A DNA stretch of 21,949 bases from an uncultured archaeon (GCA_964463155.1 CAYXAY010000010.1:1-21949), one strand, 5' to 3'; shown: positions 1-21,949, counted from the first letter of the stretch. Made by a program: numbers and translations. The notes: generated from the sequence alone by a model not told the origin.

Positions 1-302
1 AGCTTTTCTGTTCTTTTGTAGATTCTCTCTGTTTTCTTGTCTATTCCCTGAACAACAAGCTTTACTTTTTCTAGGTCTTTTGCAAGACTGTCGCTTTTCT
101 GGTGAGAGACATGAAGAGTAGATATCCTTGAGAACTGGATGTCAAGCTTATTGTATTTTGCCTCAATGTCTGATAGCCTGTCATCAGTAGCATCTATTCT
201 CTCCTTAAACTTGTTTGCTACAAATCTAATAAAAAACACAAAAATAATTAATAAGAACAGAGAATTAACCAAAAGAATAAACAACAGTTCTGTATAGGTC
301 AT
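1..302 (-). CDS. Small single-pass membrane plus coiled-coil protein, paralog of 305..637. Its 3' end runs off the left window edge (partial). Not in the supplied ORF track.
   Basis: ATG at 302..300 on the minus strand, preceded by GAGGT five nt upstream and lying 2 nt after the stop of 305..637. My hand translation is open to the window edge: MTYTELLFILLVNSLFLLIIFVFFIRFVANKFKERIDATDDRLSDIEAKYNKLDIQFSRISTLHVSHQKSDSLAKDLEKVKLVVQGIDKKTERIYKRTEKL. It aligns with the 305..637 product: both start MT, then a hydrophobic helix, and share a KDLEKVK.V.QGIDKKTE.I.KRTEKL tail. Nucleotides 1..100 are visibly similar to 321..420. Confidence 0.6.
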   Translation of the reverse strand, partial: MTYTELLFILLVNSLFLLIIFVFFIRFVANKFKERIDATDDRLSDIEAKYNKLDIQFSRISTLHVSHQKSDSLAKDLEKVKLVVQGIDKKTERIYKRTEK

Positions 303-304
303 TT

Positions 305-637
305 TTACCTCTTATTATATAGTTTTTCTGTTCTTTTAAATATCTTTTCTGTTTTCTTGTCTATGCCTTGGATAACGAACTTTACCTTCTCTAGGTCCTT
401 TGAAAGACTGCTTTGATGATTTGTTGTCTTGTCTGAAACCCTAGAAAAATTGCAATCCATCTTTTCTATCTTGTTTTCAACAAACTTACAACGCTCTTCA
501 AGGTTTTTTATCTTGTCGTGATTGTCCTCTATTTGTTCATTAAATCTTTCAGAAACATGTCTTATAATAAATATCACAATTATTATTGTAATTATGAAAT
601 TAATAAGTAATATTAGTATTAAATCTCCACCTGTCAA
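305..637 (-). CDS. Small (110 aa) single-pass membrane protein with a charged helical, probably coiled-coil, C-terminal part. Function unknown.
   Basis: ORF track. N-terminal hydrophobic helix LILILLINFIITIIIVIFII, followed by R and a K/E-rich helical segment. The start is TTG at 637, one nt after the TAA of the giant gene, suggesting translational coupling. A paralog lies immediately downstream. Confidence 0.6.
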   Translation of the reverse strand: MTGGDLILILLINFIITIIIVIFIIRHVSERFNEQIEDNHDKIKNLEERCKFVENKIEKMDCNFSRVSDKTTNHQSSLSKDLEKVKFVIQGIDKKTEKIFKRTEKLYNKR

Positions 638-638
638 A

Positions 639-3600
639 TTATCTCAACCCCACAATCCTATCAAATATACTATTATTATAACCTAGAGGTTTATATTTTT
701 TTCTGCGTCTTGACCCTGCAACATAGCCAACAATAAACAATACAAGGATTACAACTGAAGCGCCTATGTAAATGTTTGTTGGGTGGTACATAATAAAACC
801 GCGAGTATTTTCTCTTGTATTAACCACCACAAGAATTTCTTTGTATAACTTGTCTTCCGTTGTTCCAGAGAAGTTTGTTCCTTTGTTGTTTTTAACAACC
901 AAAACCAAATTTTGCACGCCACTTCTATAAGAGGTCATTACCTTAAATATTATTTTTTTTGTTTCGCCTTTCTTAAATGTAAATTTATATTCGTCTATGT
1001 CGATTGACCAATCTTTTGGGGCCAATAATGATACAGAAATGTTTTGCTCGTCGTTACTTGTGTTTTGCAAAATACATTCTATTTCTCCTGAGCTGTTGAT
1101 GTAAAGTTTTGAAACCCTTATGTCATCAAACTTTATTTCAGCTAATGACTTTTCTAGGATTCTAGAAACGCTATCAACGCTTACAAGACCGCCTTTTGTT
1201 TTTATTATAAAGGAGATTAATGTGTCTCCGATTTTAGCATCCTCTGGGATTCTTAGTTTTATTATAACATTTGCTTCTTCATAAGGCAATAGATTTGTCT
1301 TATCTATCTCAATAGTATACCATTCTTTTGGTATGTTTCTTAGAGTTATCTCTAGGTCTTTAAGGACATCGTCGCCTGTGTTTTTGATTTTTAGGACATA
1401 GAACTCTATGTCTCCTTGCTTTACAACCATCTCGCTAGGGTATTCAAACAAAGATATCTGCCCGCCGTCTATTGGCATATTGATAAAACCGGTTATTCCG
1501 CCTGAAGAACCACCACTAGCTGAGCCACCACCACCCCCGGAACCTCCGCCGCCTTGGTTTGTGTCTTGATTGATAGCAACAAACATCTTTGATGCTGCAC
1601 TCATTTCTATTCCATAATATACTTTTACTTTAAACCAATATGTTCCAACATTTTGAGTCAACAAAGTAAGATTTGTTGTCCAGGATTGGCCTGGAGAAAT
1701 CAATTTTGCTCCACTTGAATAATCAATATCATCATTGCCACCACATTGGTTTGTTTGATCAAAAACTATACAGTATTCATATTGGTATTCTTGTGTTGTG
1801 GTTCCTTCGTTTGTTATTAGGACATTTGCAGTGATTGTTGGAACAGTGACATCAGTCATTGCTATAATCTTAACCTCCGGAGGATTTCCTGTTAGTTCCC
1901 AGAAATCACTTGGCTTTGTTGTTACTCCTTTTACTGTTGTTGTAGCTATTGCCTCCCAAACCCCAGCTATCTGCCCTGTTGTAGAAGTGAAATTATAAGT
2001 GTATATTCCTGTTTCAGATAAAGTCATTGGTACATTATTGACAACCAAGTTTCTTGACGGATCGTATAAGGTTATTGTTGGAACAGCATCTGCGTTTCTT
2101 GGAGAACCGTTATGGTCAAACGCCCAAAGCTTTGCGCGATAAATGCTTCCAGGAGCTAATCTATCAAAGTCGCTTAAGACAACAGTAAATTTACTAAGTT
2201 CATTAATATAAATGTTGTTTGTTGTGTCATTAATGTCAGCAAGAAGTGCTTGCATTTGAAGAAGAGCTGCAGAAATGCTTGATTGACTTGCATTAATGTC
2301 CTTTAATGTGTTGTTAATATCAATTATGCCACCGCTTATGCTTGAAACAGAAGAACTTATGTTTGAAACCGCGTTGTTGGTCTGGCCAATAGTGGTGTTT
2401 GTATCTGTTACTGTTTTATTAATATCAGTTACTTTGCTGTTAATATCTGTTAGTCTTTGGTTTATTGTTTTTATGTTATTTGAAGTTGTTGTAAGATTTG
2501 TGTTTATTCCTTGGATGCTTGAAGTTATTGTGCTTGTTGAATTATTTAAATCCGAAATTGTTAAGAAAGTGTTTGTGCTTATAGAATTGATGTCTAGCAC
2601 ATTATTTCCAATAACATTCATTGCTTGATTTAAATCAAGGACGCTTGCGCCTAAGTTATTTGTGCTACCTATTATTGTTTGAAGGCTTATGCATATGTTA
2701 CTATCGGGATTGCCTGCGCAATTTAGGTTATTGTATATTAAAGAAAGATTACCATCTATTGTCAATTGGTTGCTTTGTATTGTGCTTAGAGAAGTTAATA
2801 TGTTTAATAATGATAGATTGTTTGAAAGATTGACATCTGTCAGGTTTTGAGAAAGATTATTTAAAAGATTGACAAGGTTATTGTTTGTAGCGGTAACCAT
2901 TGTTTGAGTGGTTAATATTTCCGACTTAATCTGAGTAACATCTGTGGCTAAATAGTTGACGTTTTTTGTTAAATCAGTTAAGCTTGTAAGGCTTGCGGTT
3001 GTTGTGCTATCAATATTGTTTATTGTGTTACTTACTTGGTTCATTGTAGCATTTAAATCCACTATTCCGGAATCTAAACTATTTATTGAAGAAAATAAAC
3101 TATTTATTAATAAAGTAATTTCGTTTATGTTTGCACATAGTGGTAATACATTTTCATCAGCACAACTTAAATTATTCAAATCAGATATTATCCCTGACAG
3201 ACTTAGTTGTATTGATCCTTGATTGTATTCCAAGGTTGAAAGAAAATTTGTTATTCCTAATAGAGATAATTGGGTTCCTACATTTACATCAGAAATCAAA
3301 GAACTAATATTTGACAAATTATTACAAACACTGTGTTGAAGGGAGTTGTTTGCACAATTTAGCGATGTTTGAATATTTAAAATCTCTGTTTGTATGGTTT
3401 GAGTGTCTGTTTCTATGCCTGTTACTTTTGCTAAAATAAATTTACTGGTTGTATTTATGTCTGTAACTGTTGAATATATGTTTCCGGCTGTGTCATTTAA
3501 ATCATTTACTGTTTGGGTGATTGTTAATGTTGTAGAGTCAATATTGTTTATTGTTGAACTCATTCCAAGAAGAGTATTGTTCATATCTTGCAAGTCGTTA

Positions 3601-6600
3601 TACAGGCTCGCTAATTGATTGCACACCCCGCCGGCTGGAGCAGAAGAACAGGTGTTTATTATTTCTTGGATGTTTGAGGTTGCTGTGTTTATATAATTTA
3701 CATTATTATCAATGTTTGTTAAAGTTGAAGAAATCAAATGCAGTTGAGCTTCTGAAGAAGTTACTGTGCTATTTATGTCTTGAGAATAATTTAAGATTGA
3801 TTGTAATGTTGAATCTAAGGAGGCTATGTCTCCGGTGCTTGCCATATTTCCTTTTATGTAACTAACATTTGAATCTATGTTTAATATTGTTAAATTTATT
3901 GAAGCAACATTAGAATTTATGGTGTTTAATGTATTATTCATCGTTGATAATGTGGTGTTGATTGTTGAAATGTTTTGGTTTATGTCTTGGTTGATTGCTA
4001 AGATTTGTTGCAACAAGGCATTTTGGTCAATTATTGCTTGATTGATATTTGAAACAACTATATTAAGATTTATCAATCTGTCACAAACACTGTTTTCCGG
4101 AGATGTTGAACAACTAAGAAGATCTTCAAGGGATGAAATATTGGTCTTTAGGCTTTGGATGTTGCCATCTATTAAAGACAATTTGGAATTTAGGAGATTG
4201 CTTGTGGAGTTGATTGTTGTAACTGTTGAATAAATGTTGTTTGTGACATTGTTTAAATCAATTATGTTTTGACTTATTATGTTGTTTGTAGAGTTAATTG
4301 TTTGGGTTGTTGAATTGATGTTGTTTAAAACTGCATTCATGTCTGAAAGATTTGTTGTTAAACCATTAAGTTTTCCACAAATGCTTGCTTGAGGACTACT
4401 TTCACAAGTGTTTATGGTTCTGTTGATGTCTATTGCTGTTGTTCTTATTGAATTAATTGTTGAGTTTATATCAAGCAGGCTTGCTTGAAGTTGAGATAGT
4501 GTGTTTGAGGAACTGTGTACTTGAGAATTAATTTCCATTGAATAATTAAGTATTGATTGAATGTTTGTGTTAAGAGCAGAAATGTTTGCCGAAGTTGCCA
4601 TGTTTGTTTTGATATAATTAACATTGGAATCGATGCTGCTTACAATTGTGTTGATTACATTTACATTTGTGTTAATGGTGTTTACTGTGCTATTGATGTT
4701 ATTAACTGTGCTGTTAATTGTGTTTACTGTTCCATTGATTGAATTTATCATTGAATTAATGTCTAATGCTAAGAAATAAATCATATAAAGTGTCTGGTTT
4801 TGATCGGTTGTTAACCCACCGCCTCCCCCTCCAATAACAGAACTTGTTGCTTGATTGACATCAAAGGAAGCTGCACACAAAAACCTGTTTGTGCCTATGT
4901 TTTGATCAATCTTAAGATTATATCCTCCGCCTGTGCTTGGAGCAGTAAATGATTTGTAGTACCAGCCACCTCCAAATTCTGTTAAGTTATAATTGTTTAG
5001 CAGATTGTGATCATAATCATATAGTTTTACTATTGGCGACAAACTCGTCACTGGCGTGTTTGAAGGCCCAATCATTAAAGCCGTTAACGAAACAGTAGAA
5101 TTAAGTGACCAAGTCCCTGGCACAAATATCTGACAACGAGCTTGATTGGTTGCAATAGAACGCAAACTATTTAATCTTATTAAATATTGTTGAAGCGTGT
5201 TTTGGGTTAATATCTTTAAATCATAATATCGACCTGCTGTTGTTGCGGTTTGGGCCTGGGAATAATAACTGTTTATACTTGTTAAATAAGAGTTTGCATA
5301 ATTACAATCGCTTTGTGAGGCCGGCGCTAGAAGAACAAGACAATATCCTGCAAGCTCAGAAGAATAATTATTTGCGGAATTATAATCTGTTTGAATATCT
5401 TTAAAGTATTTGTTTGTACCTACAATCTTTAGTGCTTTTGATTCGTTTGTTACAAAATTTTGCTTAATATAAATTATTGGTTTGTTTTGAGAATTTGTGT
5501 GTATTAGATAATTGCTGGAGTTCAAATCCAAGTAATTTGTTGTTGAAGTTAATAGAGAATTATTTAAGAGAACAGTTACTGGTTGAGTTCTATCTATCCC
5601 CTCAGAAACTTCTGCGCTCACTATGTAATTGGATAAATTATTTGCAATAACATTTTGAAGAGTTATGTTTTGAGTTATTGTAGTTGTATTGGCATCAGAA
5701 AATGAGTGGTTATTTGTTATTAATATTTCGCTTACTGCAGAGCTTACAACAAAGGAACCAATTATTGTTCCTGTGTTGTTTGAGGTCATAGCAATTATCT
5801 CTAAAACATAGGTTCCGTTTGTTGTGTTACTGTCTAATATGAAGTTGTGTGTATAGGTTCCATTATTGTTATTTGTCATTGGAGTAGTCAATAATACATT
5901 GCCACTTGGACCAATTAATCTTAAGGATAATATTGCATTAGTTATTAAACTGCCTATAATTGCATCAGTTACCGTCGCATTCACTATCACTTGATTTCCT
6001 GCAACAAACGCTGTTTGGTTTAAAGAAAGATTAATTGCAAGAGAAGAAATCTTAAAAGAGGTTGTTCCTGTGATTTCTCCATTGTTGTAAGTTGCTTTAA
6101 AGAAATAAAGACCGGCTTGAGCCGTTGTGGGTATGTTATAATCATAGATAAAATTCCCATTTGCATCAGTTGTTGTCTGAAAGGTAGTTAATGGGACTGT
6201 TGGTGCTGAATTTTTAAAAACCTGAACAATTATTGGAGCATTTGCAAGATTGTCGCTATTTTTCATCATAAATCCATTAACTCTTATTGTATTTCCACGA
6301 AGATATTCTCTACTATCTCCTCCTGAGAGAATCATAAATGCTGTGTTTTTCCAATCTCTTAAAAGGAATTGATTTTGATATAATGCATCTTGAAGTCGTG
6401 GAAATACTCTACTCATTAGCTGGTTGTAATCATCAGGATTATTGCTCGTATAAAGAGTATCAAAAGTAAACTCTGAACCACTAAGCATAGGGTTGATTAA
6501 AATTTCGGTCATGAAATCGTTTGTTGGCTGCATCGCGGCAGTATTAAACCACACATTGTGTAAATAGTTTCTAAGCCTATTATATTCCCTGTTAGATTGA

Positions 6601-9600
6601 TAATAAGCAGACCATGGTTGAGAGGCTGTTAATGCTCCCGCAAAAAAGGTAAATATTAATGTTGATGTAGTTGCTGGGACTAAACAGAAAGACCTAGAAT
6701 CAAATCTTGAAAAATCACATTGCCACGGCTGTATGTTTTTGTGTTTTGTGCCTTCGTTTAATTGATCGTGAGAATCAATTATTTGGGTATAGTCCGTATA
6801 GTGTTTGTAATCCCATAAGGAGTTATGTCTTGTATATAGTGCAGCATCAATCCCGAGATCTGGAAGGGTTGTAACTTTGTTTGGTCTTCCATCTATAACA
6901 TTTTCTATTGCTGTGCTTAGTGATCCTGATGTTGGGTAAAGAGAGGCAACTGATGGTCTAAAAGAACTGTATTGTTCTTTATTGTCTTCTCTTCTTGGAC
7001 AAATTGTTCCTTGTTGGGTTGTTGAAAAGTTTTTTATCCAACCGGGTCCTAAATCTAGATCACCAAACGGATTTGCTCCTATATTCCAATTACATGGAGA
7101 TTGAAGATAGGTTAGATTTGAATCCTCTTTGTTCCAAATCTTTGTTTCAGAATATGCTTTTTTATTATATGCAAAACTTGGAGCCCATGCATATCTTGTA
7201 AATCCACTTAATTGTTCTGCGCCTGTTGTTGCATAACCGCTAATTACCATAGGATCAGAGCTTGAAGTAAAAAACCATTTGCCATAGAATTGAGCGCCTC
7301 TTTGTGTTTCTGTGTAATCAAGAACACCATTTATATTTAGAATATTATTAATATAAAGATTAGAAGGATATGGTCTTTCTGGTTTTGCATTTTCAGCAAC
7401 AACAACATTTACATCTCTTTGGAATAATAAATATCTACCAATTGAACCAACACTTGTACTAAATATTACAACTGATGTTGCACAAGGAATATTATTTCTG
7501 CTTGTTTCTACCTTTCTGGTTGAGGAGTTAGAAATTAAATTTTCTAAATCCATTAAAAAATCATCATAGCCTTTGTAACCATACTCTTCAGTTGGGCAAA
7601 CATCTAAAATAAATGTTGATAATTTTGCGGTGGTGTTGTATTGGGAACTAAGAGACAAAGGAGGCATCCATCTGTTTTCTCTGTTGTCTGGAATATAGAG
7701 ATTTGGTTTTAGATAAAATTTTGCTATAGCATTTGGATCAACATATCTGTTATGCGCAGTACGATAGATTGATTCTTTAGGGAATGCATTGACATAACCT
7801 AGATTTCCAACATCCGGAATTACAGAACTTAGATTGGAATCACAAGAAATAAAATCTGTTGTATATGCTGTTGCAAAAGTTGCTGCGTTTGTTGTGTCTG
7901 TTGGAGAGTTTGGTCTCCATGAAAAGTAAGGCCATACTTTGTGAACTGTACAACCTTTACCTGTTTTTCCTATTGCTGAAGAAACATTTGAAAAGGTGTT
8001 GTTATAATCTATAGTGAATTGAAGGGGCAATGGACTTGCTGTTAATGTTGCAGTTTTCTTGTCTGGCGAATATACTGCCGGAATAAAAGCATCCATTAGT
8101 TCTTTTCTTCCAGACCAATCAACATAATTATTGTTTGCAACGGTTGCTGTTCCTTGAGGGATTAATGCGAAAACTGCAATAAAATAATATGGAGGATAAT
8201 TCTGGGAAATTCCTGTTGTCATAATGGGAAGAGGAGAATTAAGTTTTGACATCATTCTTATCCTTCCAGTGTTATTAAAGAAATACCAGCGAGTCATTAT
8301 GATTCTTGTTTGGGGAGAGGTGGCATTTGGATTCCCGGGGGTTGGAGAATGTGGAGAAACCGTGAAGTTTCCTGTGTTCATGTCTATTCTTGTAAATATT
8401 TTGTCCCGGTTATAACTTCTTTGATAACATCTTGAGGCAAAGGTTGCTTGTGCTGCGCCAGTGGTGTTTGTTGTTAAACCAAGACCTGTTCCTGTGCTTT
8501 GTGAATTTAAGTAACCTATGTTTAATGAATATCTTGTTGTTGCGTGATTAAACCAAGTTGCAGCATAGCCGCCAAAATTAAATGCAAATTGGTTGCTTGC
8601 AGTTGCACCAACACCTGGTTGTGACCATTTGTACCAATTGGTGCTATTAATGTCTATTATGTCTGTTCCTGCACCGCAAGTCCCTGAGACAAAAGTAACA
8701 ATTAAATCTGTTTGACCAGTTGGAGAAATTGCGGCGGTTAAAGAGTTGTAATATAGACGATATTGTTTTGTTTGACTTAAAGAAAAATTATCTTGGATAA
8801 ACAAAGTATAGTTGTTGTCAGGAGCACAAACCTCTGAGTCTAATTGGAAAAGACCTATTGGAGTATTAGTGTGGTCTGTTACAATCAAATCAGAACAATT
8901 TGATTTTATTCCGTTTGTAAAATTAACATCAAACCAAAAAGGTTCGTTTGTTCTTGAGATTATCCCTGGTTCTGTTGCAATAAAATCAATTCTGTTTGAA
9001 TAAATGTTTGTGCCGATTACAAAACTTCCGCTTTGATTTTGACCTTGAGAAACAATAATTGGGTGTGCTATTTTTTTGGTGTCCTCATCAATGTAATTCC
9101 AATGCCTATTACCATCGGTTCCTGCCCCAAGGGGTTTTGTAAGGAAATAAGATTCGTTCCAAGAATCAATTGAAGCATCAAAAAAATCCTGTATTGAATT
9201 TTTAGCAGCGTCATTTGCAAAAACGGTTGATTGACCTAATTGATTTGACCATAAATTGTTGTTTTTTCCAAACCTTGTTGCATAACCTAAAATCTGATTA
9301 TTGGTTGGATTATGACTTGATATCCAGGCCCATTTATCTTCGCCATAGGTTTTTGTTATAGGATAATCGCTCCAGCTTTTTGGATTAACTAAAAAATAGT
9401 TTGCAATTGAAGCAAGTTTGACGCCGTTTTGAGTATGTAAAAGATTTGTGCTTACCGGCATATTTTCATATAAACAATATCTATTGTTTATGTGCCAACC
9501 AAACAACTTGTCAGGATATGTTGCTGTTTGACAGAATATTCCACTATCAAATTCATCAAACATGAATTTCAGATTATTGAAAGGAGTTGGATTAGGAAGA

Positions 9601-11267
9601 GTTGCTGCTGTTGAATAGGTTGTCATTATTCTCGGGTCCATTAGTTGGGACGATGCGGTTTCTGTTGCTGTGAATTCTTTGTAAGCATTAATTATACCAA
9701 ATCGCAAATATGAAGTGTTAAATCTGTTGTCATCAGTGTTTAAATATTGACCATTACTGTCTGCTACTTTAAAAGTGAATTTTGGAGTCTCATTACTATA
9801 GAACACATTTTTTGTTGGGTTCATTACAAAATGATAAAGATTTGGATTACTTCTGATCCAAAGATTTGTGTCATAAAAAGTTTCAACACTGACGTCATTC
9901 TTTGCAAGTTTTTGTATTCTTCCTGTTGAATAAACTGGATAGATGTATCCGTTTTCCTCTGAATCAACCCACAAGTCGATAGGGCTTGCTTGAACTGAAC
10001 CTGTGCCGTATGCTGCTGTGCTTGCGGGAAGCCAAGATCTCCAGTTTACCCAGCCTATTGTTCCATCTGATTTTTTTATTTGAATTATTGGTCCGCCATT
10101 TATTCCTGCACCGCCAAGAGTTGGAGACTGGACAGCAATATAACAATTTACTGAATCGCACATTATCTTATTGTATTGTCCATAAACATAATGGTCGTCT
10201 ATTCTTTGACTTCTCCATACTAACACTCCTGTAGCAGAATCTAAAGCAAAAGCATAACCGCCAAAAAACGGACCAAGGACTGTGTTGTTAAGCCCTTTTG
10301 CAACAAACACTCTTGAATTATCACAAGCTATTCCGTTTGCTGATTGAGTGACAGAATCATCTGGATCTGAATTCCAAAGAGTTGCGCCAGTTGTGTAATC
10401 ATAAGCTAGAATATTTCCGTCAGCATAAGCAACAAAAACCCTTGTATTATCGGGGCTTATACAAATGTCGTTAGCAATTGATGCTCTTGCTGTGGGCGCG
10501 AATGCAGAAACTAGAGACGGTGTTGTTGTTAGATTTTGATATTTTCTTGGAGCTGTGCTTGCTGCATAACCAATAAATGCAAAACCACTTGAAATCGCAA
10601 TAGTTTGCGCATTGGCTGCTGCAGTAGTAAACGCGGTTGTTCCTGTACAATTGGACATTAATGTTCTTCTAAGGTTGTTTGATGTTGCTGCATAAGTTGT
10701 ATAAATAAATGTTCCGTCTGTTGCTATGCCATTGCCTGTGATTGCTACACCAATATTTACATTACAATCTCTTGCACCAGTTGACATATTGAATTTTTCA
10801 ATACCCCCTGTTGTTGTTGTTGATGTTGAAATTACATAACAAGAGGTGCCATCACAAAAAATCTTATTTTTAGAAGTTGCATAATCACCGCCAGCATTCC
10901 AATACATTGTTGCAGAAATATTGTTTGCTACAGAAAAGTATTGTTTTCCAGGGGACAATCTAAAATCATAAGGAACGGTCCAATTAAATGTAAAATTACC
11001 ATCTGCATTTGTTGTAACTAATCTTGGAAACCCCCATTGTTCATTGTAACCATCCCACCATGCAGTATTTGGTTCTAAATTGTTTTGTAAAACTAAGGTT
11101 GTGCTTGGAGAAAACCCTGTTCCTGTGATTACTACGGTGTCACCTATATGGGTTTCGTTTTTATCAATAGAAAGATTTCCTGCAAAAACAAAATTTGAAA
11201 AAAATATAAAAAATAAAACCCCAGTTATAATTTTATAAAATAAATTTAGACTAATTTTTGAATGCAT
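639..11267 (-). CDS. Giant (about 3540 aa) secreted cell-surface protein with a C-terminal membrane anchor (adhesin or S-layer-like fibre).
   Basis: Uninterrupted ORF 639..11303. I prefer the ATG at 11267, which gives MHSKISLNLFYKIITGVLFFIFFSNFVFA, a canonical signal peptide, over the upstream TTG at 11303. Domain order by eye: Ig-like, beta-propeller repeats, long unassigned W/Y/F/N-rich region, Ig-like sandwiches, heptad stalk, CARDB/NEW3-like sandwiches, TM helix plus SRRRKK. N-x-S/T sequons are very frequent throughout. Confidence 0.9.
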   Translation of the reverse strand: MHSKISLNLFYKIITGVLFFIFFSNFVFAGNLSIDKNETHIGDTVVITGTGFSPSTTLVLQNNLEPNTAWWDGYNEQWGFPRLVTTNADGNFTFNWTVPYDFRLSPGKQYFSVANNISATMYWNAGGDYATSKNKIFCDGTSCYVISTSTTTTGGIEKFNMSTGARDCNVNIGVAITGNGIATDGTFIYTTYAATSNNLRRTLMSNCTGTTAFTTAAANAQTIAISSGFAFIGYAASTAPRKYQNLTTTPSLVSAFAPTARASIANDICISPDNTRVFVAYADGNILAYDYTTGATLWNSDPDDSVTQSANGIACDNSRVFVAKGLNNTVLGPFFGGYAFALDSATGVLVWRSQRIDDHYVYGQYNKIMCDSVNCYIAVQSPTLGGAGINGGPIIQIKKSDGTIGWVNWRSWLPASTAAYGTGSVQASPIDLWVDSEENGYIYPVYSTGRIQKLAKNDVSVETFYDTNLWIRSNPNLYHFVMNPTKNVFYSNETPKFTFKVADSNGQYLNTDDNRFNTSYLRFGIINAYKEFTATETASSQLMDPRIMTTYSTAATLPNPTPFNNLKFMFDEFDSGIFCQTATYPDKLFGWHINNRYCLYENMPVSTNLLHTQNGVKLASIANYFLVNPKSWSDYPITKTYGEDKWAWISSHNPTNNQILGYATRFGKNNNLWSNQLGQSTVFANDAAKNSIQDFFDASIDSWNESYFLTKPLGAGTDGNRHWNYIDEDTKKIAHPIIVSQGQNQSGSFVIGTNIYSNRIDFIATEPGIISRTNEPFWFDVNFTNGIKSNCSDLIVTDHTNTPIGLFQLDSEVCAPDNNYTLFIQDNFSLSQTKQYRLYYNSLTAAISPTGQTDLIVTFVSGTCGAGTDIIDINSTNWYKWSQPGVGATASNQFAFNFGGYAATWFNHATTRYSLNIGYLNSQSTGTGLGLTTNTTGAAQATFASRCYQRSYNRDKIFTRIDMNTGNFTVSPHSPTPGNPNATSPQTRIIMTRWYFFNNTGRIRMMSKLNSPLPIMTTGISQNYPPYYFIAVFALIPQGTATVANNNYVDWSGRKELMDAFIPAVYSPDKKTATLTASPLPLQFTIDYNNTFSNVSSAIGKTGKGCTVHKVWPYFSWRPNSPTDTTNAATFATAYTTDFISCDSNLSSVIPDVGNLGYVNAFPKESIYRTAHNRYVDPNAIAKFYLKPNLYIPDNRENRWMPPLSLSSQYNTTAKLSTFILDVCPTEEYGYKGYDDFLMDLENLISNSSTRKVETSRNNIPCATSVVIFSTSVGSIGRYLLFQRDVNVVVAENAKPERPYPSNLYINNILNINGVLDYTETQRGAQFYGKWFFTSSSDPMVISGYATTGAEQLSGFTRYAWAPSFAYNKKAYSETKIWNKEDSNLTYLQSPCNWNIGANPFGDLDLGPGWIKNFSTTQQGTICPRREDNKEQYSSFRPSVASLYPTSGSLSTAIENVIDGRPNKVTTLPDLGIDAALYTRHNSLWDYKHYTDYTQIIDSHDQLNEGTKHKNIQPWQCDFSRFDSRSFCLVPATTSTLIFTFFAGALTASQPWSAYYQSNREYNRLRNYLHNVWFNTAAMQPTNDFMTEILINPMLSGSEFTFDTLYTSNNPDDYNQLMSRVFPRLQDALYQNQFLLRDWKNTAFMILSGGDSREYLRGNTIRVNGFMMKNSDNLANAPIIVQVFKNSAPTVPLTTFQTTTDANGNFIYDYNIPTTAQAGLYFFKATYNNGEITGTTSFKISSLAINLSLNQTAFVAGNQVIVNATVTDAIIGSLITNAILSLRLIGPSGNVLLTTPMTNNNNGTYTHNFILDSNTTNGTYVLEIIAMTSNNTGTIIGSFVVSSAVSEILITNNHSFSDANTTTITQNITLQNVIANNLSNYIVSAEVSEGIDRTQPVTVLLNNSLLTSTTNYLDLNSSNYLIHTNSQNKPIIYIKQNFVTNESKALKIVGTNKYFKDIQTDYNSANNYSSELAGYCLVLLAPASQSDCNYANSYLTSINSYYSQAQTATTAGRYYDLKILTQNTLQQYLIRLNSLRSIATNQARCQIFVPGTWSLNSTVSLTALMIGPSNTPVTSLSPIVKLYDYDHNLLNNYNLTEFGGGWYYKSFTAPSTGGGYNLKIDQNIGTNRFLCAASFDVNQATSSVIGGGGGGLTTDQNQTLYMIYFLALDINSMINSINGTVNTINSTVNNINSTVNTINTNVNVINTIVSSIDSNVNYIKTNMATSANISALNTNIQSILNYSMEINSQVHSSSNTLSQLQASLLDINSTINSIRTTAIDINRTINTCESSPQASICGKLNGLTTNLSDMNAVLNNINSTTQTINSTNNIISQNIIDLNNVTNNIYSTVTTINSTSNLLNSKLSLIDGNIQSLKTNISSLEDLLSCSTSPENSVCDRLINLNIVVSNINQAIIDQNALLQQILAINQDINQNISTINTTLSTMNNTLNTINSNVASINLTILNIDSNVSYIKGNMASTGDIASLDSTLQSILNYSQDINSTVTSSEAQLHLISSTLTNIDNNVNYINTATSNIQEIINTCSSAPAGGVCNQLASLYNDLQDMNNTLLGMSSTINNIDSTTLTITQTVNDLNDTAGNIYSTVTDINTTSKFILAKVTGIETDTQTIQTEILNIQTSLNCANNSLQHSVCNNLSNISSLISDVNVGTQLSLLGITNFLSTLEYNQGSIQLSLSGIISDLNNLSCADENVLPLCANINEITLLINSLFSSINSLDSGIVDLNATMNQVSNTINNIDSTTTASLTSLTDLTKNVNYLATDVTQIKSEILTTQTMVTATNNNLVNLLNNLSQNLTDVNLSNNLSLLNILTSLSTIQSNQLTIDGNLSLIYNNLNCAGNPDSNICISLQTIIGSTNNLGASVLDLNQAMNVIGNNVLDINSISTNTFLTISDLNNSTSTITSSIQGINTNLTTTSNNIKTINQRLTDINSKVTDINKTVTDTNTTIGQTNNAVSNISSSVSSISGGIIDINNTLKDINASQSSISAALLQMQALLADINDTTNNIYINELSKFTVVLSDFDRLAPGSIYRAKLWAFDHNGSPRNADAVPTITLYDPSRNLVVNNVPMTLSETGIYTYNFTSTTGQIAGVWEAIATTTVKGVTTKPSDFWELTGNPPEVKIIAMTDVTVPTITANVLITNEGTTTQEYQYEYCIVFDQTNQCGGNDDIDYSSGAKLISPGQSWTTNLTLLTQNVGTYWFKVKVYYGIEMSAASKMFVAINQDTNQGGGGSGGGGGSASGGSSGGITGFINMPIDGGQISLFEYPSEMVVKQGDIEFYVLKIKNTGDDVLKDLEITLRNIPKEWYTIEIDKTNLLPYEEANVIIKLRIPEDAKIGDTLISFIIKTKGGLVSVDSVSRILEKSLAEIKFDDIRVSKLYINSSGEIECILQNTSNDEQNISVSLLAPKDWSIDIDEYKFTFKKGETKKIIFKVMTSYRSGVQNLVLVVKNNKGTNFSGTTEDKLYKEILVVVNTRENTRGFIMYHPTNIYIGASVVILVLFIVGYVAGSRRRKKYKPLGYNNSIFDRIVGLR
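714..773 (-). other. C-terminal transmembrane anchor followed by a basic cytoplasmic tail.
   Basis: IYIGASVVILVLFIVGYVAG, then SRRRKKYKPLGYNNSIFDRIVGLR. I saw no LPXTG or PGF motif before it. Confidence 0.8.
800..1490 (-). other. Two tandem CARDB/NEW3-like (COG1470-type) beta-sandwich domains next to the membrane anchor.
   Basis: GDIEFYVLKIKNTGDDVLKDLEITLRNIPKEWYTIEIDKTNLLPYEEANVIIKLRIPEDAKIGDTLISFIIKT and GEIECILQNTSNDEQNISVSLLAPKDWSIDIDEYKFTFKKGETKKIIFKVMTSYRSGVQNLVLVV. Each shows the typical pattern v-N-t-G-...-l-...-v-p-.-g-W-...-l-.-p-G-e-...-v-.-v-.-v-P. Confidence 0.5.
1497..1553 (-). other. Gly/Ser-rich flexible linker (GGGGSGGGGGSASGGSSGG).
   Basis: Read directly from codons 1497..1553. 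This is locally the most GC-rich stretch I noticed in the window. Confidence 0.85.
1890..2189 (-). other. Ig-like domain immediately after the stalk.
   Basis: FTVVLSDFDRLAPGSIYRAKLWAFDHNGSPRNADAVPTITLYDPSRNLVVNNVPMTLSETGIYTYNFTSTTGQIAGVWEAIATTTV. Confidence 0.45.
2190..4800 (-). repeat. About 870-aa Asn/Ile/Ser/Thr/Leu-rich heptad-repeat (coiled-coil-like) stalk with a large internal duplication and six Cys-loop interruptions.
   Basis: Heptads such as INSTVNT INSTVNN INSTVNT INTNVNV INTIVSS. Anchor motif IDSNVNYIKTNMA (I codon 4632..4634) recurs as IDSNVSYIKGNMA (I codon 3876..3878), an offset of 756 nt or 252 aa. The following about 250 aa align by eye. Cys pairs lie at 4377..4406, 4083..4112, 3621..3650, 3324..3356, 3135..3164 and 2691..2720. 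Confidence 0.75.
4615..4765 (-). repeat. Imperfect 21-nt (one heptad) tandem repeats within coding sequence.
   Basis: The minus strand reads ATC AAT GGA ACA GTA AAC ACA / ATT AAC AGC ACA GTT AAT AAC / ATC AAT AGC ACA GTA AAC ACC / ATT AAC ACA AAT GTA AAT GTA / ATC AAC ACA ATT GTA AGC AGC / ATC GAT TCC AAT GTT AAT TAT. Confidence 0.75.
4815..4832 (-). other. Hexaglycine hinge at the N-terminal boundary of the stalk.
   Basis: Codons ccc acc gcc tcc ccc tcc on the plus strand encode GGGGGG on the minus strand (VIGGGGGGLTT). Confidence 0.85.
4850..5140 (-). other. Ig-like domain immediately before the stalk, homologous to the one after the stalk.
   Basis: SPIVKLYDYDHNLLNNYNLTEFGGGWYYKSFTAPSTGGGYNLKI parallels PTITLYDPSRNLVVNNVPMTLSETGIYTYNFTSTTGQIAGVWEAI at 1890..2189. 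Confidence 0.45.
5740..6310 (-). other. Two tandem Ig-like or carboxypeptidase-regulatory-like beta-sandwich domains.
   Basis: PIIVQVFKNS...TTDANGNFIYDYNIPTTAQAGLYFFKATYNNGEITGTTSFKISS, then NQVIVNATVTD...LRLIGPSGNVLLTTPMTNNNNGTYTHNFILDSNTTNGTYVLEIIA. These have the alternating beta-strand pattern typical of such folds. Confidence 0.5.
8745..8945 (-). other. Possible DUF2341-like beta-sandwich segment inside the unassigned central region.
   Basis: FWFDVNFTNGIKSNCSDLIVTDHTNTPIGLFQLDSEVCAPDNNYTLFIQDNFSLSQTKQYRLYYNS resembles my memory of the DUF2341 pattern (D-i-r-f-t-D ... l-p-y-e-i-e ... v-W-V ... i-y-l-Y-Y-G-N). Memory-based only. Confidence 0.25.
9900..10880 (-). other. Beta-propeller region (PQQ/BamB-like blade repeats). 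Boundaries approximate.
   Basis: Recurrent blade-like motifs: IFCDGTSCYVIS, IATDGTFIYTTY, ISPDNTRVFVAYADGNILAYDYTTGATLWNS, IACDNSRVFVAKG...GGYAFALDSATGVLVWRS, IMCDSVNCYIAV...IIQIKKSDGTIGW, GYIYPVYSTGRIQKL. Confidence 0.55.
11178..11267 (-). other. Signal peptide of the giant protein.
   Basis: MHSK n-region, hydrophobic core ITGVLFFIFFSNFVF, and an A-G boundary (VFA/GNLS). Confidence 0.7.
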
Positions 11268-11309
11268 ATTATTCCAAATTAAAGATTTAAATTTTAATAC
11301 CAATAATTG

Positions 11310-11330
11310 GTTTATTTAACTTAAATAAAC
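11310..11330. promoter_or_regulatory. Perfect 21-bp palindrome GTTTATTTAA-C-TTAAATAAAC in the divergent intergenic region upstream of the giant gene.
   Basis: Arms 11310..11319 and 11321..11330 are exact reverse complements. The centre lies 53 nt upstream of the ATG at 11267. A TTTAAAT box (minus strand, 11292..11286) lies about 22 nt upstream of that ATG. The structure is certain; its function is inferred. Confidence 0.45.
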
Positions 11331-11424
11331 TTATATATTATGTTATTAGGTATTTATAAATATATTTTATCTATTATTTTAATATGTGTATTTATAGCAA
11401 TAACTAATAGTAACTGGAAAAATT

Positions 11425-12096
11425 ATGAACTCTATTGAAAAAATATATAACCGATTGTTAACAGATTATGGGAGACAAGGCTGGTGGCCATTATCTGATA
11501 TTGGTTATCATCCTGGAAAATATTATTTGATTAAAACACATGCACAAATATTTGAAATATATGCTGGGGCAATATTAACACAAAGTGCTTCTTGGAAAAA
11601 TGTCGAAAAAGCAATCTATAATCTTAAAAAAAATGATTTGCTTAATCCTAAAGCAATAATTGAAAAAGACCAAGAAACAATAAAACATGCAATTAAATCT
11701 GTTGGCTATTATAATCAAAAATATCAAAGACTCGTTGATATTTCTAAATTTTATTTATCTTTAAAAGATAGAATGCCTACAAGATCTGAACTTCTTTCTG
11801 TTAAAGGAATTGGAAAAGAAACAGCGGATTCTATTCTTTTATATGGTCATAGAGAACCAATCTTTGTTGTTGATGCTTATACAATAAGAATACTATTAAA
11901 TCTTAAAATTATCAAGAAAAATGCAAAATACGAAGAAATACAGAAATTATTTGTGGATAACCTTCCAAGAGATTTCAAGATTTATCAAGAATATCATGCT
12001 CTTTTAGTAGAACATGCAAAAAGATATTATACTAAACGCACAATTAAAGAAAAAAAGAATAAAAAGATAATTGATCCCTTAATTGAAATTATCTAA
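11425..12096 (+). CDS. HhH-GPD superfamily DNA glycosylase, endonuclease III-related (COG2231-like). It has no C-terminal Fe-S cysteine cluster.
   Basis: Helix-hairpin-helix LLSVKGIGKETADSILLYG followed by PIFVVDAYTIRIL (Asp codon 11872..11874). WW motif YGRQGWWP near the N-terminus. The product contains no cysteine at all. Confidence 0.8.
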   Translation: MNSIEKIYNRLLTDYGRQGWWPLSDIGYHPGKYYLIKTHAQIFEIYAGAILTQSASWKNVEKAIYNLKKNDLLNPKAIIEKDQETIKHAIKSVGYYNQKYQRLVDISKFYLSLKDRMPTRSELLSVKGIGKETADSILLYGHREPIFVVDAYTIRILLNLKIIKKNAKYEEIQKLFVDNLPRDFKIYQEYHALLVEHAKRYYTKRTIKEKKNKKIIDPLIEII

Positions 12097-17347: not shown

Positions 17348-17439
17348 AATTGTTCACTAGTTTAGATAATATAACACATTATATCAAAAGATATAAAAAT
17401 CTGTGCCATAGTAATCAAAAATTGTAGAAGAAACAAGCA

Positions 17440-17475
17440 TTTCCGGTTATTTCCAGTAAGTTTCGGTAAGTTTCG
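17440..17475 (+). promoter_or_regulatory. Helically phased array of four TTTC(C/G) motifs upstream of a TATA-like box. Copy 2 (18873..18898) has three.
   Basis: TTTCC at 17440 and 17450, TTTCG at 17461 and 17471, giving spacings of 10, 11 and 10 nt. The last motif lies 14 nt before TTTAAATA in both copies. Confidence 0.4.
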
Positions 17476-17484
17476 CTAAAAGTA

Positions 17485-17492
17485 TTTAAATA
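17485..17492 (+). promoter_or_regulatory. TATA-box-like TTTAAATA with a purine-rich (BRE-like) AAAAG upstream. The equivalent in copy 2 is at 18908..18915.
   Basis: Identical in both leader copies. It lies 96 nt upstream of the start codon, implying a leader of roughly 70 nt if it is used as an archaeal promoter. Confidence 0.35.
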
Positions 17493-17522
17493 GAAAGAAT
17501 TATAAGTTTTGTATAAGTAAAC

Positions 17523-17547
17523 GATTTAATGAAAATGTCATTAAATC
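17523..17547 (+). promoter_or_regulatory. Perfect 10-bp-stem, 5-nt-loop inverted repeat GATTTAATGA-AAATG-TCATTAAATC in the leader. Copy 2 is at 18946..18970.
   Basis: The arms are exact reverse complements and identical in both copies. The repeat is located between the TATA-like box and the SD. Confidence 0.5.
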
Positions 17548-17587
17548 CCCTTTAGGAATAAAACTAAAAATTTAAGGAGGAAAAAGA

Positions 17588-18859: not shown

Positions 18860-19022
18860 AAGAAACAAGCATTTTCCTGTTATTTCCAGTAAGTTTCGCG
18901 AAAAGTATTTAAATAGAAAGAATTATAAGGTTTGTATAAGTAAACGATTTAATGAAAATGTCATTAAATCCCCTTTAGGAATAAAACTAAAAATTTAAGG
19001 AGAAAAGAAAATGAATGAAAAA
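18845..19022 (+). repeat. Leader repeat copy 2.
   Basis: See copy 1. It overlaps the last 15 nt of CDS 17588..18859 and runs through ATGAATGAAAAA of CDS 19011..20591. Confidence 0.9.
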
Positions 19023-20591: not shown

Positions 20592-20626
20592 TTTCTCTTC
20601 TTTCTTTATTTTTTTAAAAAAAGTAA
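20592..20626 (+). terminator. T-rich tract after the 526-aa gene; possible oligo-T terminator.
   Basis: TAATTTCTCTTCTTTCTTTATTTTTTT directly follows the stop codon. There is no strong GC hairpin. Confidence 0.3.
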
Positions 20627-20627
20627 C

Positions 20628-20635
20628 TTTAAATA
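20628..20635 (+). promoter_or_regulatory. TATA-box-like TTTAAATA preceded by an A-rich BRE-like tract, upstream of the wHTH gene.
   Basis: AAAAAAAGTAACTTTAAATATATAA. The box centre lies about 36 nt before the ATG at 20667, and no SD lies between, consistent with a short leader. Confidence 0.35.
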
Positions 20636-20666
20636 TATAATTATAATATAACATTATTGAACAATT

Positions 20667-21909: not shown

Positions 21910-21949
21910 TTATATCTTTTATTTTAATGATTCTGTAGAAATCCTTTTA

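Follow-up and report, generated by a model that had tools for sequence, protein, structure and literature searches.

The 3554-aa product of a giant ORF on the minus strand of the window (the whole 21,949-nt stretch of DNA analysed) is a predicted type-I membrane-anchored surface protein from an archaeon of DPANN type, in which an 861-aa, almost charge-free, Asn/Ser/Thr-rich predicted coiled coil is interrupted by six two-cysteine loops. We favour, with about even confidence, a parallel and probably trimeric stalk with a head of about 2100 aa above it and a pair of MG/Ig-like domains below, the Cys loops being disulfide-closed insertions that preserve the register. Translation placed nt 2190-4802 at aa 2168-3038 of the ORF. 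From the N-terminus, a predicted signal peptide is followed by the head, for which profile searches gave a weak PQQ/beta-propeller match and MG2 domains, and by a Gly6 linker and the stalk; a tandem beta-sandwich, a Gly/Ser linker, more beta-rich domains, a predicted TM helix and a basic tail complete the protein (Table 1). An orthologue of 3560 aa (P0002) shows 60% identity across aa 2100-3299.

Table 1. Features of the giant ORF, its stalk and the neighbouring gene (positions in the window).
Feature	Position (nt)	Strand	Details
Giant ORF	639..11303	minus	3554 aa
Signal peptide hydrophobic core	11178..11255	minus	aa 17-42, ISLNLFYKIITGVLFFIFFSNFVFAG; predicted from the translation
Gly6 linker	4815..4832	minus	aa 2158-2163; head/stalk boundary
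Heptad stalk	2196..4778	minus	aa 2176-3036, 861 aa, about 800 helical
Module A	4011..4766	minus	aa 2180-2431
21-nt (one-heptad) tandem DNA repeat, about 3 copies	4670..4741	minus	stalk start
Hexad MATSAN	4584..4601	minus	aa 2235-2240; beta-layer-like insertion, heptad phase +6
Cys loop 1, CESSPQASIC	4377..4406	minus	aa 2300-2309; type 1 (I-N-T-C...I-C), phase +1
Cys loop 2, CSTSPENSVC	4083..4112	minus	aa 2398-2407; type 2, C1 at c, C2 at e, phase 0
Module B	3255..4010	minus	aa 2432-2683; tandem duplicate of A, 756-nt offset
Hexad MASTGD	3828..3845	minus	aa 2487-2492; second beta-layer-like insertion, equivalent site in module B
Cys loop 3, CSSAPAGGVC	3621..3650	minus	aa 2552-2561; type 1
Cys loop 4, CANNSLQHSVC	3324..3356	minus	aa 2650-2660; type 2 plus one extra residue, phase +1
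Diverged third part of stalk	2196..3254	minus	aa 2684-3036
Cys loop 5, CADENVLPLC	3135..3164	minus	aa 2714-2723; phase +3 (orthologue: phase 0)
Cys loop 6, CAGNPDSNIC	2691..2720	minus	aa 2862-2871; type 2, phase 0
Second tandem DNA repeat	2402-2452
Membrane-proximal domain, two tandem beta-sandwiches	1554..2198	minus	aa 3036-3250; pLDDT 92.9
C-terminal TM helix, then basic tail SRRRKKYK	714..773	minus	aa 3511-3530; predicted from sequence
Downstream 110-aa ORF	305..637	minus	N-terminal TM helix and charged coiled coil

Heptads with a 4-3 hydrophobic spacing, as claimed in the original prediction, were confirmed by autocorrelation. The hydrophobic signal in the stalk reached 0.35 at lags of 7, 14 and 21 residues (z=10.2 at lag 7 relative to 2000 shuffles, none of them above 0.13), compared with -0.06 at lag 7 in the head of the same protein, and the periodicity of 3.45-3.5 is that of heptads. 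Position a was occupied by Leu (31%), Ile (23%) and Val (21%), together 75%, and position d by Ile (63%) and Leu (21%), together 84%, Val being reduced to 3% at d; K+R+D+E made up 8.6% of the stalk and Lys 1.6%. Aligned with the 60%-identical orthologue, the register was gapless across 525 aa. The asymmetry between a and d fits a parallel bundle, in which the two positions form different layers. Under the GCN4 rules, the beta-branched Ile residues at d speak against a dimeric stalk; the a/d composition does not discriminate between trimer and tetramer.

In the part of the stalk modelled as a monomer by AlphaFold2, helices without any strands were predicted throughout, breaking exactly at M-A-T (aa 2235-2237), M-A-S (aa 2487-2489) and loops 1-3, and by a single residue at loop 4, in a low-confidence region. 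Confidence of this model, which drew on 2 sequences only, was low (pLDDT 60.7, pTM 0.49), and a Foldseek search with it returned long helical hairpins as the nearest folds, e.g. chemoreceptor 2ch7 and SMC, with no match at E<=0.001. When AlphaFold2 models an oligomeric coiled coil as a monomer, it tends to double the helices over, and the pTM and the hairpin matches suggest that this happened here. Profile searches with the stalk matched coiled coils only, the best PDB matches being the trimeric stalks of SadA (2wpr, E=5e-5) and SlaB (8qox_B, E=1e-4); reovirus sigma-1 matched with E=8e-4 and Nup49_C weakly. Both approaches support the helical stalk originally proposed, and the structure prediction gave helices where a beta-solenoid or disorder would have spoken against it.

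The N-x-S/T sequons had been said to recur in nearly every heptad. They are present within the repeat, at 42-43 in about 115 heptads, a frequency lower than claimed and equal to that expected from composition (40.7±4.9 in plain shuffles; 36.9±4.3 with heptad position preserved, p=0.2). The reversed motif [ST]-x-N was just as frequent (43), and neither this comparison nor the two shuffles gave evidence for selection or use of the sequons. Asn stood at 0% at d, 4/118 at a and 40% at e, and occurred also at b and g; with a core of Ile, Leu and Val, this distribution contradicts the Asn-ladder core that had been suggested.

Self-comparison of the stalk ranked an offset of 252 aa (756 nt) first among internal repeats, in agreement with the two duplicate modules of about 252 aa and the diverged third part described before. 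Module A shares 42% identity with module B across 234 aa (E=3e-49), and the third part, which carries loops 5 and 6 and three 4-residue stutters and is devoid of an M-A-T hexad, is weakly related to them (E about 1e-4). In seven module copies of 37-59% identity the module was gapless across about 220 columns, a feature also compatible with a folded intramolecular bundle. Stalk length evolves via duplication of the 252-aa module and via heptad/hendecad indels.

Both +6 phase shifts of the stalk fall at the two hexads, MATSAN having the register d-e-f-g / M-A-T / e-f-g-a. The element around the hexad, with the pattern V-x-[YW]-[IL]-x-x-N-[MVI]-A-[TS]-x-x-[DENQ]-[IM], was kept in P0002, L004, L005, P0011, P0020, P0026 and P0147, and the module HMM (E=0.019 against PDB 5apz) aligned the MAT hexad, without gaps on either side, on the MATKDD of two trimers of known crystal structure, Tcar0761 and T6. 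Of the five sequence features given for beta-layers, the hexads showed four; beta-layers are short beta-strand crossings described from trimeric coiled coils only, the catalogued proteins being all homotrimers except for one monomeric domain of pseudo-threefold symmetry (Hartmann et al., 2016; PMC4786415). As judged from sequence, the M-A-T/S-x-x-D/N hexads match beta-layers in register and residue pattern: like the MATKDD beta-layers of Tcar0761, they are six-residue heptad insertions (d-e-f-g / b1-b2-b3 / e-f-g-a) with an aliphatic b1, Ala at b2, Thr or Ser at b3 and Asp/Glu/Gln(/Asn) at g, preceded by Asn as in 'IANMATKDD'. They differ from known beta-layers in that K/R at position e, 'broadly conserved' there, was absent in 11/11 hexads, in that they occur singly, one per 252-aa module, and not in nonad arrays, and in that they are known from sequence and prediction in an extracellular, archaeal protein.

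The six Cys loops were found exactly as quoted in the original prediction, at aa 2300-2871, and their spacings of 98, 154, 98, 64 and 148 aa show the alternation of long and short intervals noted there. All 12 Cys residues of the stalk lie within these C-x8/9-C loops; shuffled stalks contained on average 0.4 such pairs and never reached six in 20,000. Conservation in homologues and occurrence in other genomes, on which the loops had been staked, were both observed: P0002 kept 6/6 loops, all four Cys were invariant in the seven module copies while the loop interiors varied, the inter-loop distance was exactly 98 aa in 7/7 copies, and the loop type recurred with fixed register in archaeal relatives farther removed. 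The loops of the stalk have the general form [IL]-x-(x)-C-x3-P-x3-[IVL]-C. Across 30 loops taken from 13 proteins, C1 occupied c (or one residue further) and C2 occupied e after a hydrophobic d, and the phase shift followed loop length (5 for x6, 6 for x7, 0 for x8 and 1 for x9). This fixed register may merely reflect common descent of all loops from a single ancestral motif; a closing a-d' layer in an antiparallel hairpin would yield it as well. Cys at c and e do not share a helical face, and a disulfide between them would therefore require local unwinding. Many DPANN archaea inhabit anoxic water, which makes extracellular disulfides less certain.

In the favoured reading, about 800 of the 861 stalk residues would build an alpha-helical coiled coil that is parallel, in register and probably trimeric; as a single unbroken rod with 0.148 nm per residue, it would measure about 118-120 nm. 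The core consists of Ile, Leu and Val and the flanking and outer positions nearly entirely of Asn, Ser and Thr, so that polar contacts would take the place of the usual salt bridges. Each Cys loop would form an outward bulge of 6-8 residues between c and d, closed by an intrachain disulfide, after which the heptad frame would continue as though uninterrupted; the loops could thus act as stapled joints, possibly hinges. Standing on a base of the MG/Ig-like beta-sandwich pair, beta domains and TM helix, the stalk would hold the head off the cell, and the protein would probably serve to reach and bind a host cell or surface.

Whether the loops are staples or hairpin turns had been left undecided, and the evidence leans towards the in-line staple. 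Were they disulfide-braced hairpin turns, with the chain folded into long antiparallel three- to five-helix bundles, the stalk would be an intramolecular zig-zag rod, spectrin-like but with bundles 2-3 times longer, possibly monomeric, and would measure about 40 nm, not about 120 nm; we consider this possible, though rather unlikely. The helical arms, of 124, 88, 144, 88, 53, 138 and 164 aa, do not match in length, markedly so in the third part (the last three), and differ independently among orthologues (around loop 6 by -7 and by +11 aa; last arm 164-279 aa). Some relatives have one loop in a stalk of about 500 aa, one arm having about 485 aa and the other about 35 aa, and other, Cys-free relatives have stretches of 250-395 aa without Pro or Cys, which would need partner chains. 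The strong a/d asymmetry is likewise more typical of parallel packing, and c-to-e' is an unnatural disulfide site in antiparallel pairs. A zig-zag would also fit the constant 98-aa distance in gapless module copies and the near match of helix 2 (88 aa) to helix 3 plus hexad (85 aa), which speaks against an in-line rod; by geometric reasoning, the hexad of one long helix would then lie about level with loop 1 in the preceding module. Disulfide loops serve as chain reversals in class I viral fusion proteins, and the AlphaFold2 monomer with its hairpin-like folds counts for the zig-zag and against a trimer, although the back-folding tendency of such models and the lack of significant fold matches weaken this point.

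The parallel stalk could instead be an in-line tetramer resembling tetrabrachion, or a dimer, with the hexads as ordinary skips and not beta-layers, which we regard as unlikely. The Leu-rich a and Ile-rich d positions resemble the 'LI' core pattern, which gives tetramers in GCN4 variants, and the missing K/R at e counts in the same direction; the alignment of the hexads on MATKDD, the trimers among the best profile matches, the almost exclusively homotrimeric beta-layer catalogue and, for a dimer, Ile at d count against it. Tetrabrachion is right-handed, with an 11-residue periodicity and a very hydrophobic core; the stalk has a periodicity of 7 (not 11/3), and no sequence match between the two was found. 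Tetrabrachion of Staphylothermus marinus does provide an archaeal precedent as a tetramer, with a very long (about 70 nm) coiled-coil stalk and a distal functional part in one polypeptide (bioRxiv 10.64898/2026.08.21.746120).

A further alternative touches only loop chemistry and could hold under any of the architectures considered above. The Cys pairs could bind metal such as Zn or Fe, with six thiolates per trimer level or two per chain, or form interchain disulfide rings like those that bound the coiled coils of fibrinogen. This seems improbable, since the module-copy alignment showed no conserved His, Asp or extra Cys ligands near the loops and local pairing at 6-9 residues with Pro/Gly is typical of small disulfide loops; an invariant pair within the beta-sandwich domain (C143/C152) has the same C-x8-C spacing and would ordinarily be read as a local disulfide. 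In its favour are the strict invariance of Cys amid variable interiors, their awkward placement at c and e, and the source of the relatives, metagenome-assembled genomes of groundwater and sediment type, whose habitats may be reducing. That the region is an AT-biased Asn/Ile/Ser/Thr low-complexity stretch, disordered or a beta-solenoid with only apparent heptads, is very improbable: the G+C of 25-38% in the window favours Asn and Ile codons and AlphaFold2 confidence was modest, but Lys, likewise AT-favoured, is scarce, the helices are predicted without strands, and the clean a/d register extends over 860 aa (z=10), is absent in the head and is kept in the orthologue.

The stalk belongs among known archaeal and viral coiled-coil stalks and is no novel fibre type. 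The original statement that no characterised fibre is known to combine sequon-bearing heptads with Cys knuckles fails for the sequons; no such two-Cys loop was found in characterised stalks. [quoted passage not shown] Its helix, however, has 132 aa compared with 861 aa and enters the membrane directly, with the beta-sandwiches distal, whereas in the giant protein these lie between stalk and membrane and the 2100-aa head forms the distal part; Cys loops and hexads are absent from the aligned stretch of SlaB, and the similarity may be compositional and limited to the coiled coil. Trimeric autotransporter adhesins (SadA 2wpr, EibD 2xzr) also carry an adhesive head on long, polar, Asn/Thr-rich trimeric stalks, broken but not terminated by small conserved inserts; they sit in the bacterial outer membrane, anchored by a C-terminal beta-barrel, and have Asn at core d (N@d), unlike the giant protein with its TM-helix anchor and archaeal origin. 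Coronavirus spike, whose HR1 was a weaker profile match (E 0.004-0.1), shares trimeric coiled-coil segments in a glycosylated surface protein, a weak similarity that is compositional; its HR2 stalk bears N-glycans and flexible joints. In retroviral and filoviral fusion proteins a disulfide-closed loop adjoins the heptad repeats, reversing the chain between length-matched repeats, in contrast to the unmatched arms seen here. Coiled-coil proteins of the DPANN lineage (Woesearchaeota, Pacearchaeota, Nanoarchaeota), for which host contact was proposed, show sigma-1 and Nup49_C matches of the kinds obtained with our stalk (sigma-1 tail 6gaj), homology not being implied; they are encoded in type IV pilus-like loci, and neither beta-layer hexads nor Cys loops are described for them in the accessible text of that report (Hamm et al., 2024; PMC11291902). 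No type IV pilus-like genes were found within the window.

The membrane-proximal domain, with the invariant motif EY.YEYC..N.CGG.DD (CIVFDQTNQC), is common to more than 300 proteins and constitutes the family-defining part; its structural matches were the MG domains of TEP1/A2M/C3, and RbmA. The downstream 110-aa ORF is syntenic with the gene downstream of the orthologue (39% identity, E=3e-27), and its product is a possible partner of the giant protein.

The repeat region lies within a single minus-strand ORF of 3554 codons, whose product (the giant protein) was found on translation to begin with an N-terminal signal-type hydrophobic segment, followed by a mostly unannotated 'head' of ~2100 aa containing a weak PQQ-propeller match and three MG2 stretches. 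A Gly6 linker leads into the repeat region, here called the stalk, and beyond it lie a conserved beta-rich domain, a Gly/Ser linker, further beta-rich domains and finally a C-terminal TM helix followed by SRRRKKYK. The signal-type segment and the TM helix, as read from the translation, show a predicted type-I topology. An archaeal setting is indicated by an Lrs14/Sta1-type and DUF7343 HTH protein encoded in the window, and by the aEF-1alpha, S10, RtcB and MJ0043/MJ0538-family genes on the contig of P0002, a 60%-identical orthologue. PHROG matches were weak and of unknown function, and provided no evidence of a phage origin. The G+C content of the giant gene is 30–39% versus 24–30% elsewhere in the window (1–11000 versus 11000–21949), and along the stalk the plus-strand GC skew is positive (about +0.2 from 2001 to 5000). 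Amino-acid composition may account for this, or it may reflect foreign origin.

Features of the giant gene and of its neighbours in the window
Feature	Window position (strand)	Residues	Remark
Giant-protein ORF	639..11303 (-)	1-3554
Repeat region	2190-4802 (-)	2168-3038
Stalk		2176-3036	a/d pattern nearly unbroken
Module A		2180-2431	252 aa
Hexad of module A		2235-2240	MATSAN
Module B		2432-2683	252 aa
Hexad of module B		2487-2492	MASTGD
Third part		2684-3036	diverged
Tandem beta-sandwich domain	1554-2198 (-)	3036-3250	directly after stalk
C-x8-C of that domain	1743-1772 (-)	3178-3187	CIVFDQTNQC
21-nt tandem repeats	4670-4741, 2402-2452		2.4-3 copies
110-aa ORF	305-637 (-)		directly downstream of giant gene
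1752-aa protein	12089-17347 (-)		neighbour of giant gene
Small ORF	21499-21909 (+)		DUF333 and Kazal-type domains

The stalk had been predicted to consist of heptads, and the hydrophobic autocorrelation of 0.35 at lags 7, 14 and 21 confirmed this periodicity, with a lag-7 signal (z=10.2 versus shuffles) that is missing from the head of the same protein. The core is apolar, with L/I/V at 75% of positions a (L31/I23/V21 %) and I/L at 84% of positions d (I63/L21 %), and is flanked by Asn (40 %) at e and by T28/N22 % at g; K, R, D and E together make up 8.6 % of the residues. Rather than the beta-solenoid or disordered state considered as alternatives, the AF2 model of the stalk gave helices, at moderate confidence (pLDDT 60.7, two-sequence alignment), with breaks at the two-cysteine loops and the six-residue insertions (hexads) described below, and two more in low-confidence stretches. 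That the stalk is a coiled coil is well supported. Its Pfam and NCBIfam matches (DUF1664, Laminin_II, SMC, Rad50, SpiroCoCo, arcadin-4, Nup49_C) were rejected as far below the family cut-offs or composition-driven; the match to DUF1664, presumably a coiled-coil family from plants, nominally exceeded its cut-off (43.7 versus 34.6 bits) and was treated as compositional.

The best internal repeat offset of the stalk is 252 aa (756 nt), and the proposed duplication into two modules was borne out, modules A and B being 42 % identical (E=3e-49) and the third part only faintly related to them. Two other elements of the original prediction did not hold. Sequons do not recur in nearly every heptad: 42–43 N-x-S/T motifs occur in about 115 heptads, which is the number expected from composition (40.7±4.9 in plain shuffles; 36.9±4.3, p=0.2, in shuffles within heptad positions) and equals the count of the reversed motif [ST]-x-N (43), so that selection for sequons in this stalk was rejected by all three comparisons. 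In the wider archaeal family N-x-S/T is found at 3.1 versus 1.2 per 100 aa for the reversed motif. Nor is there an Asn-ladder core, since Asn is rare at a and occupies none of the 107 d positions, which also rules out N@d layers. Twenty-four of the sequons have their Asn at position e, where glycosylation is conceivable. The tandem DNA repeats within the stalk gene have a unit of exactly one heptad and could offer a slippage route to changes of stalk length by whole heptads; the orthologues differ in the third part by 7- and 11-residue indels.

All six two-cysteine loops (C-x8/9-C) of the original prediction are present and account for 12 of the 12 stalk cysteines, at spacings of 98/154/98/64/148 aa, whereas shuffled stalks contained 0.4 such pairs on average and never reached six. 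The loops are also conserved in homologues. P0002 retains six of six, and in seven module copies (37–59 % identity) neither the four Cys nor the Pro of loop 1 ever changes, whereas residues inside the loops do. Loops of this type were found in proteins from the sequence search (P0009, P0011, P0013, P0015, P0020, P0056, P0108, P0137, P0147 with five loops, and P0150) and at genomic loci of relatives (L003–L005, L011, L020), and all genome-derived carriers are archaeal; the stalks of bacterial relatives are Ser/Thr-rich (35–45%) and Cys-free. Across the relatives the first Cys falls at c, or one residue later ('I-N-T-C' type), and the second at e, preceded by a hydrophobic d. The heptad phase shift tracks loop length (5 for x6, 6 for x7, 0 for x8 and 1 for x9), and deletion of the 6–8 inserted residues leaves an uninterrupted a-b-c|d-e-f-g frame. 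In the AF2 model the helix is interrupted from roughly two residues ahead of the first Cys until three to four residues ahead of the second. We did not accept the fixed c/e register as many independent proofs that the rod continues in line, since all of them may descend from a single motif, and closure by an antiparallel a-d' layer would produce this register too. The conserved beta-sandwich domain carries an invariant C-x8-C of its own (C143/C152 in the domain alignment), spaced like the cysteines of the stalk loops.

The stalk contains just two +6 phase shifts, which read 'KTN-MATSAN-I' and 'KGN-MASTGD-I', and the AF2 monomer breaks its helix for three residues exactly at M-A-T and M-A-S. 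Beta-layers are defined by the insertion of 6 or 2 residues in the register d-e-f-g/b1-b2-b3/e-f-g, with hydrophobic residues at b1 and b2 (the latter small, A/V), D/N/T/S at b3, D/E/Q at g and K/R 'broadly conserved' at e, the family consensus being [aliphatic]-A-T-K-[polar]-[DE] (Hartmann et al., PMC4786415). The hexads have the register of such an insertion, I(d)-K-T-N / M-A-T / S-A-N-I(a), and belong to a conserved element, V-x-[YW]-[IL]-x-x-N-[MVI]-A-[TS]-x-x-[DENQ]-[IM], also found in P0002 (twice), L004, L005, P0011, P0020 (twice), P0026 and P0147. In this element [MVI]-A-[TS] was seen in 11 of 11 instances from eight proteins, and position g is mostly D, E or Q, with N in the module A hexad and in P0020; position e holds S, T, V, A or Q and never K/R, and the hexad site of L003 reads L-I-T. 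The hexads show all sequence features of beta-layers but K/R at e. When an HMM of the module was aligned to the crystallised Tcar0761 and T6 constructs, its MAT fell on their MATKDD and the flanks needed no gaps; a PDB profile search returned 5apz (E=0.019). The catalogued beta-layer proteins are all homotrimers, except for one monomeric domain with pseudo-threefold symmetry (PMC4786415).

A homology search with the stalk alone yielded a single weak match, the word index being saturated by low-complexity words. An exhaustive HMMER search with aa 2100–3299, covering the stalk and the flanking domain, gave 345 representative proteins at E<1e-3, among them one full-length orthologue, P0002 (3560 aa). 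In most of the others the common part was limited to the ~215-aa domain directly after the stalk, usually behind an N/S/T-rich heptad region of their own; heptad runs of 100 aa or more were present in 104 of 152 sequences of the family. This domain, for which no Pfam model was found, has an invariant EY.YEYC..N.CGG.DD motif and 26 invariant columns, and was confidently modelled by AF2 (pLDDT 92.9) as two tandem beta-sandwiches resembling the MG domains of TEP1, alpha-2-macroglobulin and C3, and also RbmA. It has 219 relatives in reference genomes, the closest (59–70% identity) from DPANN archaea, and most of the 80 loci kept are from CPR/Patescibacteria (42–50 % identity). The nearest genomic relatives are from uncultured archaea, Iainarchaeum, Micrarchaeota, Pacearchaeota, Woesearchaeota and Nanoarchaeota. 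Database names of relatives include 'hypothetical protein', 'PGF-pre-PGF domain-containing protein' and 'archaellum component FlaC', the last being spurious and driven by the coiled coil. Some family members end in a dockerin-like CVDINGDNKVDSIDFSILL in place of the TM helix. Two full-length homologues (52–57 % identity), L003 (CAYHBD010000008.1) and L004 (DAOOON010000008.1), carry only a single 252-aa module with three loops, so that module duplication has altered the length of the stalk (460 versus 860 aa). The duplication appears to be confined to the lineage comprising the window and P0002. Another sequon-bearing heptad stalk was seen in an archaeal surface protein unrelated to this family (P0001, JGI, 1020 aa), in which about 600 aa consist of the 14-residue repeat I-x-T-D-I-x-x-I-N-A/G-T-L-x-S-I-E-G with INAT/INGT sequons and the C-terminus is a TM helix.

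How the chains are arranged is best accounted for by a parallel, in-line and probably trimeric stalk, a reading that we consider an even call. In favour of parallel chains running in line, a and d are asymmetric (Val 21 % at a versus 3 % at d, where Ile reaches 63 %), the arms between the loops are of unmatched length (124/88/144/88/53/138/164 aa) and vary independently among orthologues (−7 and +11 aa around loop 6, the last arm 164–279 aa), and some relatives have one loop in a stalk of ~500 aa. Moreover, Cys-free relatives contain stretches of 250–395 aa devoid of Pro and Cys, whose seams a single chain could not bury. A trimer is suggested by the beta-layer match, the Ile at d and the best PDB profile matches, which are trimeric stalks: SadA 2wpr (5e-5), SlaB 8qox_B (1e-4, confirmed as SlaB), EibD, spike HR1 and sigma-1. 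Counted against the in-line trimer was the AF2 monomer (two sequences, pLDDT 60.7, pTM 0.49), whose nearest folds were long hairpins with insignificant scores; Foldseek of this model against the PDB gave no match at E≤0.001, only generic long hairpins, and was uninformative on the oligomer state. A spectrin-like zig-zag, in which the chain would fold back at the Cys loops, is a real rival because helix 2 (88 aa) is almost as long as helix 3 with its hexad (85 aa) and seven copies of the module align without gaps; set beside the unmatched arms, it seems unlikely. A parallel oligomer of another order would keep the parallel chains and depart from the pointers to a trimer, and we hold it to be rather improbable.

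Among known stalks, SlaB has N-terminal beta-sandwiches and then a C-terminal coiled coil running into a TM helix, whereas in the giant protein the head is followed by the stalk, and this in turn by beta-sandwiches, a linker, beta domains and the TM helix; the PDB profile match to SlaB is confined to the coiled coil, and no gene resembling SlaA, its lattice partner, was recognised among the ORFs scanned in the window. Trimeric autotransporter adhesins have N@d layers and a YadA-type C-terminal beta-barrel anchor, and no such anchor domain was found by Pfam search in the giant protein, which ends in a TM helix. Tetrabrachion is a right-handed tetramer with 11-residue (hendecad) periodicity, while the stalk has dominant periods of 3.45–3.5 and 7.0 with only isolated 4-residue stutters. 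Polar coiled-coil stalks with N-x-S/T motifs, as in SlaB, are already known, as are beta-layers and DPANN coiled-coil proteins; Hamm et al. (PMC11291902) describe sigma-1-like coiled-coil proteins across DPANN, with a proposed role in host contact. Our literature search turned up neither this protein family nor archaeal coiled-coil stalks with Cys loops, and likewise no account of such extreme stalk length with low charge or of registered two-cysteine loops.

If the stalk is an in-line trimer, three chains would come together as a rod some 118 nm long (800 helical residues x 0.148 nm), with adjacent helices in contact through Asn(e) and Thr/Asn(g) instead of salt bridges. The beta-layers, one per module, would turn the chains by 120 degrees and lock their register, and each Cys pair would close a short Pro/Gly-containing bulge beyond which the rod carries on in register, stapled against unzipping and perhaps slightly flexible. 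Such a rod would hold the head far from the cell, like SlaB, tetrabrachion, the stalks of trimeric autotransporter adhesins and reovirus sigma-1. We tentatively propose that the loops ('knuckles') form an undescribed class of coiled-coil discontinuity beside stutters, stammers and beta-layers, namely a disulfide-closed outward loop of 6–8 residues between c and d that keeps the register of a trimeric rod, and that they are set with beta-layer hexads at fixed intervals on ~120-nm, nearly charge-free DPANN fibres reaching for the host. Their function might be that of hinges with a covalent staple, or of docking marks.

The cells of DPANN archaea and CPR bacteria are tiny, and the rod would span a sizeable fraction of such a cell. 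Cultivated DPANN archaea need physical contact with a host cell (PMC11291902), and a membrane-anchored rod of ~120 nm with a 2100-aa head is a concrete candidate for an attachment fibre, its membrane-proximal module being present in both the DPANN and the CPR radiations, across the divide between archaea and bacteria. The stalk is also an extreme natural case of a coiled coil, with few charges, Asn at e and two conserved, precisely registered types of interruption, one matching the beta-layer motif of trimers and the other, the Cys knuckle, having no described counterpart that we could find. Should the in-line arrangement be true, designers could insert loops into long coiled coils with the register kept, and the sequence would predict a ruler for cryo-ET, on which knuckles recur at intervals of about 14 and 23 nm.

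Three further ORFs of the window deserve mention. The 110-aa ORF encodes a TM helix and a charged coiled coil and has a counterpart at the same position beside the orthologue (39% identity, E=3e-27); its product may be a candidate partner of the giant protein. In the 1752-aa protein, which is secreted or anchored, the C-terminal domain is of the YkuD / ElsL-like L,D-transpeptidase or carboxypeptidase type, and a glucosaminidase domain is weakly matched. Both are enzymes directed at peptidoglycan; in a genome that appears to be archaeal, their presence might hint at a bacterial host or prey. Finally, the small plus-strand ORF joins DUF333 to a Kazal-type serine-protease-inhibitor domain, a combination that seemed unusual in an archaeal genome.
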